IMG/VR virus record: IMGVR_UViG_2756170246_000002
Coordinates: 156 to 64,155 of that record
From: a virus
DNA length: 64,000 nucleotides
Strand: one strand, 5' to 3'
The translations under genes and the position numbers were made by a program. The first letter of the stretch is position 1, and each line of letters opens with the position of its first letter. Shown here in pieces: positions 14,232-31,641 of this stretch. A model generated the notes under the pieces. That model was not told the DNA's origin. It saw nothing but the letters and a program-made list of their open reading frames with translations, and did not search any database.

Positions 14232-14300
14232 GGCTGGTTTCATGAGGGTGAAATCAGCAGGGTCACCGACACCGGCTGCGGGTTTTTCGGGCACCGCCCG
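14232..14300 (-). promoter_or_regulatory. Structured leader motif, copy 1 (upstream of tail tube gene)
   Basis: Shares CGGGCGGTGCCCG, GCAGCCGGTGTCGGTGAC, GCTGATTTCAC and GAAACCAGCC blocks with 22996-23063. Confidence 0.75.
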
Positions 14301-22995: not shown

Positions 22996-23063
22996 GGCTG
23001 GTTTCGCTGTGAAATCAGCCGCGTCACCGACACCGGCTGCTGATGATTGCGGGCACCGCCCGC
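22996..23063 (-). promoter_or_regulatory. Structured leader motif, copy 2 (upstream of major capsid gene)
   Basis: Three hairpins matching 14232-14300. Confidence 0.75.
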
Positions 23064-25333: not shown

Positions 25334-25711
25334 TCAGGCGAGCGCGGCGTCGACCACGCGATAGGGGCAGCGCAGAAGAGCTGCGATCTCGGTGCGCTTG
25401 CGTCCCATGCCGAACAGCCGGCGGATTTCTGCGGCGCTGTTGACGTTCATCGGTTCGAGCGATGGCTCCGGCTTGGGCGGCGCAGCCTTCACCTTGGCGG
25501 CAGCCTCGGCGCGGGCGTGGCGCTTCTCAGCAGCCGCTTCCGGGTCACGCGGCTCGTGCTGGACGCGGCGCGTGACGTTGAGCCTCGCGGCAAGCTGGCT
25601 TGGATAACTGGCAGACATGCCGAACGCCTTGGCGATCTCGGCTGTCGGCACGCCGGCGACATACAGGCGCATTATCTCGCGGCGCTTGTCTTCGCTCAGC
25701 GGCTTGATCAT
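25334..25711 (-). CDS. HTH DNA-binding protein (two HTH-like segments)
   Basis: IMRLYVAGVPTAEIAKAFGMS and IRRLFGMGRKRTEIAALL. Confidence 0.7.
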   Translation of the reverse strand: MIKPLSEDKRREIMRLYVAGVPTAEIAKAFGMSASYPSQLAARLNVTRRVQHEPRDPEAAAEKRHARAEAAAKVKAAPPKPEPSLEPMNVNSAAEIRRLFGMGRKRTEIAALLRCPYRVVDAALA

Positions 25712-25739
25712 GGAATTTCCTGGTCTATCCGGCGCCACC

Positions 25740-26081
25740 GCTTCCCCGCCACAATGAACCGCTTGCCAACGGCTGCCCCGCGCGGGTGCTTCTTAGGGTC
25801 GAGCGAGTGGCCTTTTGGCCGTAGCCGGTATCAGGCTTAAGGACTGCAGGGCAATTTCTGGAGCGGAAGTCGGAGCGTCCGCGAAACTGTTGGGCGGCTT
25901 TCGGTCAGATGCCCCCGACCGTTAGCCGCCCCGCTTTTGGCTCCAACCAACGGAACCGAAAACTGTTGCCCGGTCTCTCAACCGGGCAGGGCCAGATGCT
26001 TGCCTTTAGCGCCATCCTCACCCTGCAAGTCTGCAAGTGTCGGCCGAAGCCTTCGTCTTCAAACTGCAGGTCTATCGGATC
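25740..26081 (-). ncRNA. Putative highly structured ncRNA directly 3' of tRNA-fMet
   Basis: About 340 nt with no credible ORF; nested helices and a UUCG tetraloop (core 25842-26051). Confidence 0.6.
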
Positions 26082-26158
<77 letters not shown>

Positions 26159-26167
26159 AAACCATCT

Positions 26168-26203
26168 GGTGCCAGAATGGTTACAATCTCACGCCGATGT
26201 CAA
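26168..26203 (-). promoter_or_regulatory. Putative tRNA promoter TTGACA-N18-CATTCT overlapped by operator variant (26168-26184)
   Basis: TTGACA at 26203-26198; GGTGCCAGAATGGTTAC. Confidence 0.55.
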
Positions 26204-27424
26204 GAGCGATGGCTGTGGACAATCCGAACCGAGCCAGTCGGCGTCGGGTTTGCCGAGGAGTTCGGCGGTCCACCCGCCCATCGACCGCACGAACGGCGCG
26301 AGGTCCGCCAGATGCGCCCGCCATGCCTGCCGATACCGCTCCACCTGACGCCATGGCTGGCCATTGTAGAAGTGCGGCGAGGTGTCCATCGGGACGCCGC
26401 CAAGAACAATGCGCTCATAGCCCAGTTCAAGCAGGCCCTTGACCGCAAGCAGCCCGGTCGAGCCGCCCCAATCGGGCGTGGTCTTGTCGATGCCAGGCGC
26501 TGCCTTGTGCGCCCAGACCTCGGGTTTGTTGCGCCCTGCCTTGACGCGCCGTGACACCGCGTCTCGGATGCCGATCCAGTCGATGCATGCGCCCGGATGC
26601 AGCGTGAACCAGTAGTCGAGATGCCCCTGCCATTCGATGCCGATGTTGTTGGCGGCGGCGACAGCGTTCGGCGTGAACAGTTTCAGCGCAGATGCGGCGT
26701 CGGCATGGACACAGGCCGCATCGCCCAAAACCAGGGCCGTTCTCACGGGATCAGGTCTCCAGTCGGTGAGCACGGGTGCATCCCGCTCTGGTTCGGGCCA
26801 GATGTCGCCCGCTGCTACCAGGCGCACGCGCTGCCGGCGCGCCAGATGCTGCATCACAGGCAACTCGATCGCGAAATCATGGTTGCCCGCCTTGCTCACT
26901 CCGCCCTTGTAGGCGGAGAAGCTGAAGGTGCCGGGGTTCTTGCGATAGGTCGGCGAAAAGGCCTGGTCGAGCTCCAGCGTTTTTCCCGCTGCGATATTGT
27001 CGAAGCCGACAAGGGCAATAGTCGATCCGCGCTGCGCCCGCTCGATCGCCCAGCATGTAGCGATCGTGCCGCGCGTGAACTGGAGCCGCCCCGTGGCGCC
27101 AAGCCCGCCGAGCTTTTCGCCGATCGTGTTCCAGGGCTTCTGGTCGACCAGCTCGGTTCCCTTTGGCATGTCGCAGCGGTCCGGTTGGTGCAGGATCGAT
27201 GCGACCCAGCCGCGCGCCGGCTTGCGCCGGTTGTTCTGCTGGAACGTCTTGATCATGGCCGGGTGCGCTTCGAGCAGCCCGAAATCGTACTTTTGACCGT
27301 AATCGACCGCATCCTGCCAGGCGCAGTCCCACATGCGGATGACGGTGTCGCAACCGTCGATGAACTTGCCCCAGCGCTTGCCCTCCGGCGAGCGGCCGTG
27401 GCCGATGATCGCTATCGTTGCCAT
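26189..27424 (-). CDS. Two-domain transferase: GT29 sialyltransferase-like + MAF/DUF115-like
   Basis: Sialylmotif-L-like IAIIGHG...GKFIDGCDTVIR, S-like TRGTIA...ALVGFD, VS-like HDFAIE; second domain GGSTGLLAV...YERIVLGGVPMD. Confidence 0.65.
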   Translation of the reverse strand: MATIAIIGHGRSPEGKRWGKFIDGCDTVIRMWDCAWQDAVDYGQKYDFGLLEAHPAMIKTFQQNNRRKPARGWVASILHQPDRCDMPKGTELVDQKPWNTIGEKLGGLGATGRLQFTRGTIATCWAIERAQRGSTIALVGFDNIAAGKTLELDQAFSPTYRKNPGTFSFSAYKGGVSKAGNHDFAIELPVMQHLARRQRVRLVAAGDIWPEPERDAPVLTDWRPDPVRTALVLGDAACVHADAASALKLFTPNAVAAANNIGIEWQGHLDYWFTLHPGACIDWIGIRDAVSRRVKAGRNKPEVWAHKAAPGIDKTTPDWGGSTGLLAVKGLLELGYERIVLGGVPMDTSPHFYNGQPWRQVERYRQAWRAHLADLAPFVRSMGGWTAELLGKPDADWLGSDCPQPSLLTSA

Positions 27425-28329
27425 TCGATCAGCAGCACCGGATAGAGGCCAGGCGAGCCGCGCCAGCGGTTGATGCGGCGGCGGCCGTCGAGCACGATCG
27501 TGCGGCGCTGCGGTCCGCCGCGCATCAGCGTCACCGGGCCATCCTCGAAGCGCGGCGGCAGGTCGGTCCGATAGTGATCCTCCGGCTCGGCCGTGGCATC
27601 ATGCTTCGACGCCATCCAGTCGATGACCTTCACCAGATCGGCCGCCGGCCAATATGTCGATGTAACCCGATGCGTTTCGGGCGACGGTTGGACATGTCCA
27701 AACCATTCGCAGGCAATGCGCTGCATCTCGAAATAGGGCGTGTGGCCATGATGCTGGAACTGCGCAAGCACGTCGTCCCATGTTGGGGGGCGCAGCCGGA
27801 ACATCTCCTCGACGCCGTCTTGCGTGATCTCGGTGACTCGGCGGTCTTCGATGTAGAGCCCGTCAATCGCCGTATACCAAGCCGAAAGCTGGTGTGTCTG
27901 GTTGACGCGGATCGTCTCGTGGCCGTGCCTGATCGTGGCGACGATTGTTCGGGCAACGCGCCGCAGTTCGGCGACGGCGACCTGCATCTCACTTGGCCGA
28001 AGCCAATCGAGGAGCCGTGTGCATATCGCTGTGGCGAAGTCGCTGTCATGGTAGGGCAGCGCGAAAATCGATCCCTGAAACGTGGCAAACTCGGGATAGC
28101 GCGCGCTCGCCACCGCCAACATGTCGGCCGAGACATCGACACCGGTCACAGCAAACCCGCGCTCGCGGTAGATTTCGCCATAGCGCCCGGTGCCAAGCGG
28201 CACGTCGAGCACCGGACCATCTCGAACGAAGTCGGCGACCGCCAGTTGCTCGCGCGCCCAGCGCAGGGAATGGCAGCGCTCGACGTCATACCGCTCTGCG
28301 ATGGTGCCGTGATACTTGTCGGGGTTCAA
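27412..28329 (-). CDS. Class I SAM methyltransferase fused to a ParB/Srx-like C-terminal domain
   Basis: VLDVPLGTGRY, GVDVSADML; C-terminal VLDGRRR; likely TTG start overlapping upstream TGA. Confidence 0.75.
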   Translation of the reverse strand: MNPDKYHGTIAERYDVERCHSLRWAREQLAVADFVRDGPVLDVPLGTGRYGEIYRERGFAVTGVDVSADMLAVASARYPEFATFQGSIFALPYHDSDFATAICTRLLDWLRPSEMQVAVAELRRVARTIVATIRHGHETIRVNQTHQLSAWYTAIDGLYIEDRRVTEITQDGVEEMFRLRPPTWDDVLAQFQHHGHTPYFEMQRIACEWFGHVQPSPETHRVTSTYWPAADLVKVIDWMASKHDATAEPEDHYRTDLPPRFEDGPVTLMRGGPQRRTIVLDGRRRINRWRGSPGLYPVLLIEWQR

Positions 28330-28544
28330 AGCCGGTCCATGACGTGAAGCTTCAGATGCTCGGCGATCCACAACGCAAACTCTCGCGACATGTGGGAAGA
28401 TTGAACCACAAAATCGTCATCGTCCTTGTGGAAGCCGACGATAATCACCTGATCCCACGATTCCCGACTGCTGTAGGCAAGCGCCTCTTCTGGCGTCATC
28501 TTGTTGTGTGGGCCGAGTTCAACGACCTTTTCGTTGGCGCTCAT
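28326..28544 (-). CDS. Small hypothetical protein
   Basis: 72 aa, 4-bp overlaps on both sides. Confidence 0.6.
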   Translation of the reverse strand: MSANEKVVELGPHNKMTPEEALAYSSRESWDQVIIVGFHKDDDDFVVQSSHMSREFALWIAEHLKLHVMDRL

Positions 28545-29392
28545 CGTGCTTGCCAGGCTGCCGCGTGTTCCACCCCATGCTTGCAGCCGTCGCTGTTGCA
28601 GCCGCCACAGGGCGAAAGACCCTCACGAGACCGAAGCAACTGCATGCGACGCTTGCGCATTGCCGGCGAGGTCCAGATGTCGAGCAGGTGCTCGTGAGCG
28701 GCAGAGCCGAAACGCACCACCTTATGCCAATCCTGGGGGCAGAGCAGAACGTCGCCATTCCAATCCAACATCAATTGGTATCCGGCGTACCAGCATGGCC
28801 GTGTCGCATCGATCGGCCGCTGCTCGCCGACATTGATCGTCCCGGCCCGATTGGTGAGGTGCGACAGGCCGAAATTCTCTTCCTCCGGCTGCCAGCGGTC
28901 GCGCAGGATGAACTCGCTCGAGCCAGCCTCGGCAAAGATAGCCTCGAAATGCTCGATCTGGGATGGCCCGTCATACATCGAGACGCAGATGTAATCGCAG
29001 CCGGCCGCCGTGAGGTCGCGCACCATGCTCGCGGTGAGCCGATCGCCATTCGTGGTCAACTCGACGCGGAACTCGCCGAAGGCGCGCACCAGGTCGATGA
29101 TTTTCGGATGCAGCAGCGGCTCGCCGAAGCCGCAGATATGGACCGTTCCCTCGTAGGCGAGGTCTTTCAGGTCGGCCGCGATCTTGCGCGCCAACTCCAC
29201 AGACATGTGGAGCCGCTGGTTGGGGTAAATCGCGTCATCGACGCGCGGGCAGAAGACGCAAGCCCGGTTGCAAAGTTCGGTCGGGTTGATCTCAACGAAC
29301 GAGAACAGCGGCACCTTGCCGACCATCTGGACGCGATCAACGAAGGTCGCCTTGCGCGCCAAGTTGCGGAGCGTGGCGTCGTTGGCGTTCAT
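28541..29392 (-). CDS. Radical SAM enzyme with SPASM/twitch domain
   Basis: CNRACVFC, GFGEPLLHP, LTTNG, C-terminal CWY...NGDVLLC...PCGGC. Confidence 0.92.
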   Translation of the reverse strand: MNANDATLRNLARKATFVDRVQMVGKVPLFSFVEINPTELCNRACVFCPRVDDAIYPNQRLHMSVELARKIAADLKDLAYEGTVHICGFGEPLLHPKIIDLVRAFGEFRVELTTNGDRLTASMVRDLTAAGCDYICVSMYDGPSQIEHFEAIFAEAGSSEFILRDRWQPEEENFGLSHLTNRAGTINVGEQRPIDATRPCWYAGYQLMLDWNGDVLLCPQDWHKVVRFGSAAHEHLLDIWTSPAMRKRRMQLLRSREGLSPCGGCNSDGCKHGVEHAAAWQAR

Positions 29393-29595
29393 CAGGCGGC
29401 AATGCGCTTGTGCACGTAGACCGAACGATCCGGCGTGATCCGGTAGCCATCGAACTCGACGCCTGCGCCTGGAAGGGTGCCCTTGTCGAGATAGACCCTG
29501 CTTCCGTCGCGAAAAATCACGACGCCTTCAATGCTTTCGTCCGATGACAGGACGGCGGCGATTTCCTCGGTGTCGATCTGCAGCTTTTCCATCAT
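29392..29595 (-). CDS. Small hypothetical protein
   Basis: MMEKLQID..., coupled overlaps. Confidence 0.55.
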   Translation of the reverse strand: MMEKLQIDTEEIAAVLSSDESIEGVVIFRDGSRVYLDKGTLPGAGVEFDGYRITPDRSVYVHKRIAA

Positions 29596-30233
29596 CCAAC
29601 CTTCCTGAAAATCATGAGCCCGTCGCGGTGCACCAAGCGCCCGCTGTCGTCGTAGCTGGCGTGGATGAGTTGGAGCCGATCGCTGGCGAGGAACAGTTTC
29701 AGCGCACCGGTAAAGCCGTTGGCGATCTCGGCGCCGTAGCGCTGCTCGCCGTGCAGGAAGGCCTGCGACACGACCAGCAAACCATCGGCGCGCAAGGTGC
29801 GCAGCATGTTGGCCAGCGTCACGTCGAAGCGGTGCAGCACATACCAGAGGCACTGGCCGAGCACGACGAAGTCGACCGAGACGCAACCGAAGTCGTCCGC
29901 TGTGATGTCGCCCTGCCGGAACACCGCGTCGTGCTGGAGGCTGCGCGCGGTCTTGACCGCCGCTTCGCTGATGTCGATCCCGATCATGGGGCAGATCGCG
30001 GCGCGTAGCATCGCGGTCAAGTGACCGTGGCCGCAGCCGATCTCGATGCCGGCATTGAACGGCCCGAGCCTGCCCAGCGTCTCAACGAGGCGCGTGCGGC
30101 TCACGGCGTAATAGGCCGCCATCTGGCCCTTGCGGCCGGCCTGGTCCCAAGGATCAGGGTTTTCCGAATAGACCCTCTGCCAGTCGCCGACGAGTTGGAG
30201 CTTGCCGTCGGTCTCGGCGAAGACGCCTTCCAT
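29592..30233 (-). CDS. Class I SAM methyltransferase, NodS-like
   Basis: PDPWD, IEIGCGHG, GIDISEAAV, LWYV motifs. Confidence 0.85.
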   Translation of the reverse strand: MEGVFAETDGKLQLVGDWQRVYSENPDPWDQAGRKGQMAAYYAVSRTRLVETLGRLGPFNAGIEIGCGHGHLTAMLRAAICPMIGIDISEAAVKTARSLQHDAVFRQGDITADDFGCVSVDFVVLGQCLWYVLHRFDVTLANMLRTLRADGLLVVSQAFLHGEQRYGAEIANGFTGALKLFLASDRLQLIHASYDDSGRLVHRDGLMIFRKVG

Positions 30234-30592
30234 CAGGCCGCTTCCGCCAGCCAGAAGGTCTCGATGGCATCAAGCACATCCGGCGCTGTCACGCCGTCGC
30301 GAAACACGCCGCCGATCTGGCAATATGCGCAGATGGTTCGTTCGGCATGATGCGCTCGGCCTGCCCGATATAGATGCTCGATCCACTCGAACGGCGACAT
30401 ATCTGCCTTCTCGTTGTTGCACGCGAAGCAGACGATAATCGCCAGCGTGCCGCCCTGCGAGCGAGGGAAAATATGATCCCTTGTGGTGTGGAAGATGCTG
30501 CGATTGCGCCCTAGAACCATCTTCACACCGCAGTATGGGCACGGCTTTCCAACGGCCTTTTCGCGTCGCTTGTACAGGTCGATCACGTTCAT
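30233..30592 (-). CDS. HNH endonuclease
   Basis: CPYCG...TRDHIFPRSQGG...CFACNNEK. Confidence 0.8.
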   Translation of the reverse strand: MNVIDLYKRREKAVGKPCPYCGVKMVLGRNRSIFHTTRDHIFPRSQGGTLAIIVCFACNNEKADMSPFEWIEHLYRAGRAHHAERTICAYCQIGGVFRDGVTAPDVLDAIETFWLAEAA

Positions 30593-31641
30593 ACCGACTC
30601 CACAAAGATGCTGTGGAACCGCTGCATCAGCGCCCCAGAGCCGCACGTCACAAGCAGATGCCCGTCGAGCGGCGCCGGGAAACCCGCCTTCACATGCACG
30701 CCGCGCACCTTGAGCGCCGCAGCAACCTCGCTCGCGCGCTCGCCCGGCCCGATCAGCACGTGGTTTGCGAACCAGCCCCGAACATCGAAGCCGTCGGCGC
30801 GCAGCGTCTCGCGCAGCCAATCGCGGCCGGCGCAGACCTCCGCAATGCCGGGCTCGATCCATTGCGCCCACATGTCCATCAGCACCGTGGCGGCATGCAG
30901 CGAAGGGCCTGAAATCTCGCCGGACTCCCGAATGGCATGAAGCGGCCGGATCACCGAAGGCTGCCCGATGGCATAGCCGACGCGAAGCGCAGCACCGCCG
31001 AAAGCCTTCGAAAAGGTGCGCATGATCAGCACGTTGTCGAACTCGTCGACCAGCGGCAGCGCCGTTTCGGCACCAAAGCCGTAATAGGCCTCGTCGATGG
31101 CGAACACCGCGCCGATCTCCTGGCAGCGCTGCGCGATGCGCCTCAACTCAGCGAGGCAGAAATAGGTCTCGACCGGCTGGCCCGGGTTCGGCAGGATCAG
31201 CAGCCGAACGCCGCTGTCCAGCTTGTCCACGATGTCGGCGACGCCGAGCAATCGTTTCGGGTCCGTGACGATCCGAACCGGCCTCGCGAGGAAAACCTCG
31301 GAATAGACGTCGAACATGGCGCAGGTCGGCCAGGTGAAGGCAAACCCATCCGCCGGCTCGCAGCAGAGCAGGATGAGGGTGCGGATAAAATCCTCGATAC
31401 CGGCGCCGACGACAAGCCGTTCCTCGGCCACGCCGGTGAAAGCGGAAAGCCTGCGATAGAACGCGGCATAGTCCGGATACCAGTTGTCGGGCGGGCCGGC
31501 GCGCATCGCTTCCACGACTTCGCTCGGCCATGGCTCGGGGCGTTCAAGACGGTGCAGGCGCATATCCTCGCGCGGGATCGGCGGGATGCGCTTGCGCTCG
31601 ATCGAGCCCAGATGCCGAAAACACTCACGGAACAACGTCAC
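30589..31641 (-). CDS. PLP-dependent aminotransferase class I/II (HisC/CobD-like)
   Basis: NPGQP, IDEAYYGF, RTFSKAFG.AALRVGY (PLP lysine). Confidence 0.92.
   Translation of the reverse strand: MTLFRECFRHLGSIERKRIPPIPREDMRLHRLERPEPWPSEVVEAMRAGPPDNWYPDYAAFYRRLSAFTGVAEERLVVGAGIEDFIRTLILLCCEPADGFAFTWPTCAMFDVYSEVFLARPVRIVTDPKRLLGVADIVDKLDSGVRLLILPNPGQPVETYFCLAELRRIAQRCQEIGAVFAIDEAYYGFGAETALPLVDEFDNVLIMRTFSKAFGGAALRVGYAIGQPSVIRPLHAIRESGEISGPSLHAATVLMDMWAQWIEPGIAEVCAGRDWLRETLRADGFDVRGWFANHVLIGPGERASEVAAALKVRGVHVKAGFPAPLDGHLLVTCGSGALMQRFHSIFVESV

Follow-up and report, generated by a model that had tools for sequence, protein, structure and literature searches.

The question raised by this locus is what occupies the 342 nt (25740..26081, minus strand) that separate a phage tRNA gene from the next protein-coding gene in the head operon of a prophage. 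The window, i.e. the whole stretch of viral DNA that was analysed (64,000 nt, positions 156 to 64,155 of IMG/VR record IMGVR_UViG_2756170246_000002), is contained in a Mesorhizobium-type genome of 7.45 Mb in 52 contigs, and its nearest named protein relatives are from Mesorhizobium. In a first-pass annotation made from the letters of the sequence, this gene-free stretch (hereafter the gap) was presented as a single compact multi-helix RNA, comparable by its position to the large phage RNAs GOLLD and ROOL. Another explanation is favored here and, taking its two statements together, we regard it as probable: Mesorhizobium phages would carry in their head-gene clusters a small RNA island with its own promoter, of which the 342 nt represent the part that is not tRNA, and these 342 nt would form a chain of separable modules (M1, M2 with HP1, HP2, HP3, HP4, and leader D) connected by ACAGUUU linkers.

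The gap lies in a prophage late operon on the minus strand. The 5' part of the operon encodes a DUF2280 (TerS-like) protein, TerL, the portal protein, an aminotransferase, an HNH protein, and a methyltransferase. These are followed by a radical-SAM/SPASM protein, a second methyltransferase, a 411-aa Maf-like protein, the tRNA-Met gene, and the gap, after which come an HTH_23 gene (ATG at 25711), two small genes, the scaffold gene, and the major capsid gene. In more distant phages harboring the same enzyme cassette, the 411-aa gene is directly followed by the scaffold and capsid genes, without tRNA, gap, or HTH gene; these three thus correspond to an inserted island. Islands of this type are found in the head modules of three capsid families, phrog_247, phrog_371, and phrog_264. 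The tRNA itself is a tRNA-Met(CAU) of the initiator type (26082..26158, minus strand), detected by ARAGORN and by the Rfam tRNA model (56.4 bits). It harbors a C1xA72 mismatch, an A11-U24 pair, and an encoded CCA, and is about 86% identical to the rrn-type tRNA-fMet genes of the host. The region downstream of the host tRNA-fMet was considered as a source of the modules and discarded, only the first 12 nt of the trailer being alike. A reading of the gap as a pac or cos site was also rejected because the terminase genes are located about 8 kb upstream.

The gene-free stretch behind the initiator tRNA is confirmed as a real folded RNA region. On the minus strand, the gap folds with a minimum free energy (MFE) of -150.9 kcal/mol, corresponding to a z-score of -3.15 against dinucleotide-shuffled controls, of which 1 in 100 is as good, and its core (25857-26004) reaches a z-score of -4.14, none of 200 shuffled sequences folding as well. 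The antisense (plus) strand yields -139.7 kcal/mol and a z-score of -1.76, so that the sense strand folds better by about 11 kcal/mol. All helices and repeats listed in the first-pass annotation were found on the minus strand: the GGC-UUCG-GCC tetraloop GGCUUCGGCC (26051-26042), the two strands of P1 (26031-26018 and 25854-25842) and of P2 (25996-25992 and 25861-25857), the hairpins UGCCCGGU/ACCGGGCA (strands at 25988/25974), GGUUCC/GGAGCC (25957/25944), GGGCGGCU/AGCCGCCC (25931/25899, with the inner helix CGGUC/GACCG at 25921/25906), and GCGGA/UCCGC (25882/25867), as well as the two copies of CAACAGUUU (starting at 25968 and 25892) and of GCAUCUG (starting at 25999 and 25912). The word AACAGTTT is found four times in the window for an expectation of 0.57, two of the four being inside the gap on the sense strand.

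The region was also correctly described as a structured and conserved minus-strand RNA region directly downstream of the phage tRNA, as non-coding (a conserved ORF is absent), and as distinct from known RNA classes. A cmscan of the window against Rfam at gathering scores detected only the tRNA and nothing in the gap, and the same search of 25500-26400 at E-values up to 10 added two chance matches. Five related loci, at both gathering and relaxed thresholds, yielded tRNAs only. No tmRNA was found by ARAGORN or by the Rfam tmRNA model. The region is thus outside GOLLD, ROOL, tRNA, tmRNA, and all other Rfam families.

Relatives of the gap were reached by way of the flanking proteins, by scanning IMG/VR for short conserved words of the RNA, and with a covariance model. 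As a query, the HTH protein retrieved very little from genome and viral contigs or from genomes of the family and of the genus, and the homologous loci came from a large protein index. Homologous RNA was found in L026 (Mesorhizobium sp. M0058), L043 (=L044), L040 (=L041, L042), L083 (=L085), and L086, and further in L088 and L091 (one viral contig), L090, L092 (=L093), and L094, as well as in three other Mesorhizobium genomes (L097, L098, and L099). About 10 related Mesorhizobium prophage or viral contigs carry the same pieces in different combinations. The homologous gaps range from 370 to 940 nt and have only blocks in common, the order and number of which vary; the region from the window, with its 342 nt, is the shortest of all loci. 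All-against-all blastn of six homologous gaps also retrieved common blocks in different combinations. In GenBank phages and PLSDB plasmids, blastn with the gap returned the tRNA only or nothing, and no copies of the gap were detected in 201 other genomes of the genus. Several candidate matches were discarded: two short blastn matches to M1 in other Mesorhizobium genomes are located inside a hydrolase-like coding region and are due to chance, a 20-nt pattern scan of genome contigs gave 3 matches in unrelated phyla versus about 4 expected by chance, and none of the 37 chance matches from an 18-nt scan of metagenome contigs extended past the seed. The gap is present as a single copy in the 7.45-Mb genome and not in the many copies that characterize RIME- or REP-like rhizobial intergenic repeats.

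The modules differ in their distribution. M1 (26020..26081, minus strand) is, in the MFE structure, a long imperfect hairpin capped by the GGC-UUCG-GCC element and holding the 5' strand of P1. It has no homologue in any related locus and is unique to the window phage. M2 (25960..26016, minus strand) is composed of GAUGGCGCUAAAGGCAAGCAUCUGGCCC, the hairpin HP1 (GCCCGG-UUGAGAGA-CCGGGC, 25988-25967), and the linker CAACAGUUU. In the mosaic comparison, the succession of GAUGGCGCUAAAGGCAAGCAUCUGGCCC, this hairpin, and AACAGUUU recurs in L040, L091, and L094, and M2 blocks are 92-96% identical in L040, L086, L091, and L094. The HP1 hairpin alone recurs in L086, L090, and L092, and is present in 6 IMG/VR viral contigs, each time behind an initiator-type tRNA-Met. 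M2 or HP1 is found without the remaining modules in L090, L092, and L094, and HP4 without M2 in L083, L097, L098, and L099. HP2 (GGUUCC/GGAGCC) and HP3 (GGGCGGCU/AGCCGCCC with its inner helix) together span 25892..25959 on the minus strand. At the position of HP2, relatives harbor GUCCU/AGGAC, GUCCC/GGGAU, or GGUUC/GAGCC, and at that of HP3 GGGACGGC/GCCGUCCC or GGGGACUCGCUC/GAGCGGGUCCUC; in both cases the hairpin is kept while both strands have changed. HP3 can also accommodate inserts of 40-230 nt, including a 70-aa ORF in L040. As a whole, the non-coding blocks are 84-95% conserved versus 60-77% for the neighboring HTH gene.

Adjacent units are joined by a fixed linker, the second CAACAGUUU copy of the window being located at 25884..25892 on the minus strand. 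The islands of 9 loci contain 14 sense-strand copies of the heptamer ACAGTTT, all located directly past the 3' strand of a stem and ahead of the following unit, versus a single sense copy in the flanking DNA of the same loci, which makes up most of the approximately 85 kb scanned. In L026 the heptamer directly adjoins tRNA-Met on its 5' side, and most loci have a GUUU leader before the tRNA.

HP4 (25859..25882, minus strand) has the signature of a tRNA-Gly-type acceptor microhelix. It can be read as ACAGUUUC / GCGGA - loop - UCCGC / U / CCA, with a tRNA-type 5' leader, the five pairs G1-C72, C2-G71, G3-C70, G4-C69, and A5-U68, a 10-nt loop, U73, and an encoded CCA, whose three bases are the first three of the P2 3' strand. 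A search of the whole host genome with ARAGORN found 5' GCGG and CCGC-UCCA 3' combined only in the three tRNA-Gly genes. In bacteria, the glycine identity elements of the acceptor arm are U73, G1-C72, and C2-G71 (PMC9976931). The window therefore carries the 5-bp microhelix of a tRNA-Gly-like RNA.

The nature of this RNA is suggested by its longer relatives. Seven of them harbor a long form with the same ends, built on a 7-bp acceptor. Inside it come 11 nt of single strand, a hairpin of 7 bp closing a 5-nt loop, 4 nt, and a second hairpin (5 bp, 7-nt loop) directly next to the 3' strand of the acceptor. The whole has the geometry of a tRNA lacking the D arm. The last hairpin of L097 is a canonical T arm, CUGGG-UUCGAUU-CCCAG, and the T loop grades from UUCGAUU in L097 to AUUAGCA in L026. 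The short forms of the window, L043, and L040 are reduced to a 5-bp microhelix with a 10-13-nt loop, the T arm (a 5-bp stem and a 7-nt loop) of the long relatives being absent. Judged from these comparisons, HP4 is a truncated form of a D-arm-less tRNA-like RNA. It is not a tRNA in the usual sense: HP4 has no cloverleaf with D, anticodon, and T arms, and neither RF00005 nor ARAGORN has a match in the gap. The long forms in L026, L083, and L086 have no RF00005 match, and the copies in L097-L099 are not called as tRNAs by ARAGORN.

A covariance model, R1, was built from seven sequences, four long forms and three short forms including that of the window. It scores 105-110 bits for the four long training forms and 29-35 bits for the three short ones (34.5 bits and an E-value of 4e-7 in the window), and 57-68 bits in three further Mesorhizobium genomes outside the model, for a total of 10 copies. 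In the R1 alignment, 98.7% of the cells pair versus about 40% for slid partners, and 8 of 19 pairs show compensatory changes, values reached by 0 of 500 shuffles, although the relatedness of the sequences and the fitting of the alignment to R1 overstate this covariation somewhat. All 10 copies are identical in the first four acceptor pairs, U73, CCA, and the 5' leader, and the internal hairpins covary, whereas the bases located 3' of CCA vary (GAAA, AGAA, UUAU, GAGA, GCCC). Of 150 other Mesorhizobium genomes, 3 contain the HP4 family, and it was not found in any of 150 genomes representing 134 further genera of the host family; given this rarity, selection may be weak, or the elements may be recent.

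These data bear on the possibility that the gap is a decaying relic, namely the wreck of a phage tRNA array in which pseudo-tRNAs and spacers without present function lie beside a working tRNA-Met. HP4 is indeed a deletion derivative of a tRNA-like unit, with a T loop that is canonical in L097, altered in L026, and lost in the window. The window gap is the shortest of all, M1 is restricted to it, and in relatives odd tRNA-like genes with aberrant anticodon loops are found at the place of block D. With only 5 bp and no T arm, the window copy of HP4 might be cleaved poorly by RNase P or be a dead relic. Decay of the whole region is nevertheless difficult to reconcile with 10 copies that are all identical in acceptor pairs 1-4, U73, CCA, and 5' leader but covary in their internal hairpins, with the retention of the same microhelix by three independently shortened forms, with non-coding blocks that are more conserved than the adjacent gene, or with a linker kept on the sense strand only. 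The relic explanation is thus rather unlikely.

The last 120 nt raise a different issue, as they form a separate conserved leader before the HTH gene. This structured leader, block D (25725..25856, minus strand), contains the 3' strand of P1 and is directly upstream of a gene (25334..25711, minus strand) encoding a 125-aa protein with two HTH-like segments (Pfam HTH_23, E-value of 1.8e-8). This gene, for which 16 homologues were aligned, is the first gene after the RNA modules, which it follows in 7 of 10 loci. Block D is 87-95% identical at the nucleotide level among the window, L043, and L040, versus 71-77% for the adjoining HTH gene. In L088, a diverged copy of block D, alone, precedes a different gene, and in L026, L083, and L086 a type-II tRNA-like gene is found where the window has block D. 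The consensus fold of block D has 3 compensatory pairs and many pairs broken in L088, and is ambiguous.

The whole gap could accordingly be conceived as a cis-acting leader, i.e. a long 5' UTR controlling the stability, translation, or read-through of the HTH and head genes. The highly conserved block D is immediately adjacent to the start codon and is also found, in L088, before another gene, and its 3' half resembles hairpin leaders found before capsid and tail-tube genes. No terminator separates the modules from the HTH gene, and HP4-type units lie about 30-280 nt upstream of a gene start in 10/10 loci. However, M2/HP1 is also found before unrelated genes in phages without the HTH gene, and no conserved switch between alternative pairings was found. 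Control in cis suits block D better than 25857-26081, and for the gap as a whole we hold it to be unlikely.

The compact architecture of the first-pass annotation is a third possibility. It describes one RNA of about 340 nt, with a multi-hairpin junction closed by the long-range helices P1 and P2, that would act as a unit in the manner of GOLLD or ROOL. The fold is significantly stable, P2 and the adjacent GGCAA/UUGCC helix reach a pair probability of 0.9 in two of three sequence contexts (0.1 in the third), and the P2 series goes from C-G in the window to U.G in L026 and U-A in L043. Yet in the full-length ensemble the M1 hairpin sequesters the 5' strand of P1, which brings the pair probability of P1 down to about 0, and the isolated core contains P1 but not P2, so that the two are never found together there. 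P2 cannot form in L040 (CCAUU), L088 (CCAGC), or L086, and three of the five bases of its 3' strand, CCAGA, are the invariant CCA of the tRNA-like unit. An apparent covariation of GGCAA/UUGCC in the window to GGUG/CACC in L026 was rejected, as part of its 5' strand also falls in a conserved local hairpin of module A and the pairing is disrupted in L086. What argues most against long-range helices closing a single RNA is that the parts of that RNA occur separately in relatives, where the modules are shared in shifting combinations. The analogy with GOLLD (RF01998) and ROOL (RF03087), which are also non-coding, highly structured, found in prophages, and often located beside tRNA genes, holds for the position next to a tRNA and for nothing else. 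No covariance-model match to either family was found even at an E-value of 10 in the window region or in five related loci, nor any Rfam match to another family, and both have one large conserved multi-domain architecture of about 500-800 nt, whereas the gap has 342 nt and independently exchangeable parts. Long-range closure by P1/P2 is unproven and is not taken here as a trait of the family, and the compact RNA is quite improbable.

Lastly, we give very little credence to a DNA-level element, in which the hairpins and the near-palindrome AACAGTT would be protein-binding sites, for example for the adjacent HTH protein, or sites of recombination and module exchange rather than RNA structures: AACAGTT is palindromic around its central base and coincides with module boundaries, and an HTH gene is next door, but the sense strand folds better and with the stronger z-score, the conserved stems contain G.U pairs, the linker is on the sense strand only within the islands, and HP4 has the leader, acceptor, and NCCA end of a tRNA.

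If the gap is a chain of modules, its expression can be considered together with that of the tRNA, which it adjoins on the same strand. A promoter-like site (26176..26204, minus strand) is composed of CTTGAC, a 17-nt spacer, and ACCATT, followed by a GGCACCA leader, its -35 element being inside the 3' end of the upstream Maf-like gene. The block CTTGAC...GTAACCA...TGGCACCA precedes the tRNA or the modules in L025, L026, L083, L091, and L094. The conserved block, with ACCATT or a similar element, travels with the island to all insertion sites, and is kept even in L083, where tRNA-Met is deleted. The strict sigma-70 scan did not call this site and found no promoter. No terminator-like site was detected between 25300 and 26500, the U run of ACAGUUU(U) starting 4-5 nt past the stems, and none separates the tRNA from the gap. 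The gap and the tRNA are behind the same conserved promoter-like site and, as proposed in the first-pass annotation, may share their control.

The proposed release of the RNA by RNase Z is less convincing. An encoded CCA is an anti-determinant for this enzyme, and since the phage tRNA encodes its own CCA, RNase Z is unlikely to release the RNA; processing would instead be expected to involve RNase P, RNase E, and exonucleases. The AG↓UUU of the linker fits the RNase E preference, RN↓WUU, and the linker looks like a processing site; a U at position -1 is favorable for RNase P. In the mechanism that we propose, the island would be transcribed with the initiator tRNA as one polycistronic unit. 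RNase P would cut 5' of the tRNA and 5' of the acceptor-like unit (at G25882), RNase E would cut at the AG↓UUU linkers, and exonucleases would trim the products back to CCA. The products would be the tRNA, a handful of small, stable hairpin RNAs, and, downstream, an mRNA starting at leader D.

Known systems provide partial parallels for such a scheme, and the closest functional resemblance would be to the tRNA cluster of T4, including its stable RNAs, and to the t-elements of organelles. The T4 cluster also yields the stable RNAs C and D (species 1 and 2), and is the closest analogue published so far: in both cases a phage tRNA gene lies beside structured non-tRNA small RNAs, with co-transcription and maturation by host enzymes being presumed for the island. 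T4 is, however, a lytic coliphage with eight elongator tRNAs, whereas here a single initiator-type tRNA lies in the head operon of temperate Mesorhizobium phages, with modules that are unrelated in sequence to the T4 stable RNAs and mosaic between phages. T4 tRNA precursors and their processing by RNase P have been described, and RNase P also processes the phage M3 and C4 RNAs (PMC11143913). In plant mitochondria, tRNA-like t-elements and acceptor-like stem-loops define mRNA ends (PMC1920247). Like HP4, t-elements are partial tRNA mimics, with an acceptor stem and sometimes a T arm, located between coding units, and they guide RNase P or RNase Z to cuts by which mRNA ends are set and stable RNAs of small size are freed (PMC1920247). 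They belong to another kingdom and involve other enzymes, and the window HP4, a putative cleavage signal, has no T arm.

A further parallel concerns the tRNA-Gly acceptor minihelices that are substrates of GlyRS, FaRel2, and TacT. The toxSAS FaRel2 selects tRNA-Gly via G1-C72, C2-G71, G4-C69, and Pu5-Py68, and modifies minihelices (PMC11559606), whereas TacT reads U73 and G71 (PMC9976931). All of these determinants, together with CCA, are present in HP4, which makes a role as a decoy possible, but the substrates of these enzymes are host tRNAs or synthetic minihelices, and the window stem has 5 bp instead of 7 bp and a T arm. The acceptor unit could conceivably be a phage decoy or sponge, the UCCA end of which, once exposed by processing, would soak up readers of the tRNA-Gly end, such as CCA-pyrophosphorylating toxSAS and TacT-type acetyltransferase toxins, and would thereby protect late-gene translation, the initiator tRNA serving the same counter-defense purpose. 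This idea is highly speculative and its probability is low; to our knowledge, no natural phage-encoded acceptor mimic of this kind has been described.

Phage tRNA genes are now viewed as counter-measures to host defenses that destroy or block tRNAs, and structured RNAs that travel with phage tRNAs have been without explanation since the T4 stable RNAs. The island described here provides a comparative handle on this problem, with tRNA-Gly-like acceptor mimics that have a conserved CCA, modules absent from Rfam, and a fixed linker, all in rhizobial head operons. If its pieces are processed and stable, they would represent either a bacterial-virus form of tRNA punctuation or RNA decoys for enzymes that read the acceptor stem, and both ideas are directly testable in a culturable Mesorhizobium lysogen.

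The phage initiator-type tRNA of the island (window 26082-26158) was compared with the tRNA-fMet genes linked to the rrn operons of the host genome (G000:C1:58962-59055 and 66474-66567). Two differences were found, one being position 3, with U3.G70 in the phage tRNA and C3-G70 in the host tRNA, and the other the entire T stem. Both tRNAs have A29-U41 in the anticodon stem where a third G-C pair would stand. The first 12 trailer bases are also alike, a match suggesting that the phage tRNA was captured from a host-type gene. One related phage (L083:1866-1900, identical in L085) keeps the promoter of the island together with the GGCACCAAC leader but lacks tRNA-Met, and its RNA modules come straight after the promoter. 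Upstream of the island, between it and the portal gene, lies a cassette encoding an aminotransferase, two methyltransferases, a radical-SAM/SPASM protein and a 411-aa Maf-like protein (window 26189-31641). Pfam PF00777 is recorded in a distant half-length homologue.

A module of about 90 nt recurs in five related Mesorhizobium prophage or viral loci (L086:1628-1722, L090:5580-5668, L092:2418-2506, L094:4116-4210 and L040:141-236), each time directly 3' of tRNA-Met. It is composed of GGGG-AA-GCCGCNG-CG-CCCC, a variable hairpin, CNGCGGC and a hairpin of the HP1 type found in the window. Pairing between the first hairpin's loop and the strand downstream gives an H-type pseudoknot, with compensatory changes in both the loop pairing (GCCGCCG/CGGCGGC, GCCGCAG/CUGCGGC, GCCGCUG/CAGCGG) and the stem (GGGG/CCCC versus GUGG/CCAC). 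A further module of about 130 nt, module A, is found at L026:5453-5600, L043:2009-2155, L086:1719-1865 and, on the minus strand, in L091; the window has no copy. Its identity between loci is 84-86%, against 60-69% for the HTH genes of the same loci. With a ACAGUUUUUGA leader followed by the closing helix GGGUGC/GCACCC and R-CCA, module A appears to be a second unit that ends, as a tRNA does, in NCCA.

The RNA modules are followed by the HTH gene in 7 of 10 loci. The window's HTH protein (25334-25711, 125 aa) has HTH_23 at its N-terminus and a C-terminal second segment, EIRRL..GR.RTEIAALLRCPYRVVDAAL, which is nearly invariant among 16 homologues. At L040:320-532, hairpin HP3 carries an inserted 70-aa ORF, and on the contig carrying P0021 a called 70-aa gene lies equally far upstream of the HTH gene.

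The tRNA-Gly-like unit, a D-arm-less tRNA-like RNA, also occurs in two other Mesorhizobium genomes (L097, G137:C10; L098, G136:C26) with no tRNA-Met close by. It lies only 70-250 nt from frames that read as host-type, a transporter-like C-terminus in L097 and a response-regulator-like gene in L098, and the gene 3' of it closely resembles the phrog_2085-family gene of L088. Judged from these neighbours, the unit in both loci is at the apparent border of phage-derived DNA.

Block D, the conserved leader upstream of the HTH gene, reads in its 3' half (window 25725-25800) as CCCGCGCGGGG, CAGCCG-loop-CGGUU and AUU. It is similar to the paired hairpins in the capsid and tail-tube gene leaders (window 22996-23063 and 14232-14300), which run CGGGC-GGU-GCCCG, CAGCCG...CGGCUG and AUUU, and the three may share a late-gene leader motif. 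At three loci, the block D position is filled by type-II tRNA-like genes with a long variable arm (L026:6147-6243, L083:2314-2406, L086:2369-2467). They lack an encoded CCA, and CACCAG/CUGGUG lengthens their acceptor helix to 12-13 bp. Each locus has its own aberrant anticodon loop: CUAAUCA in one, a loop with the anticodon AGA in another, and in a third an 8-nt loop for which ARAGORN gives a 4-base anticodon. These genes could encode suppressor tRNAs, frameshift tRNAs or tRNA mimics.
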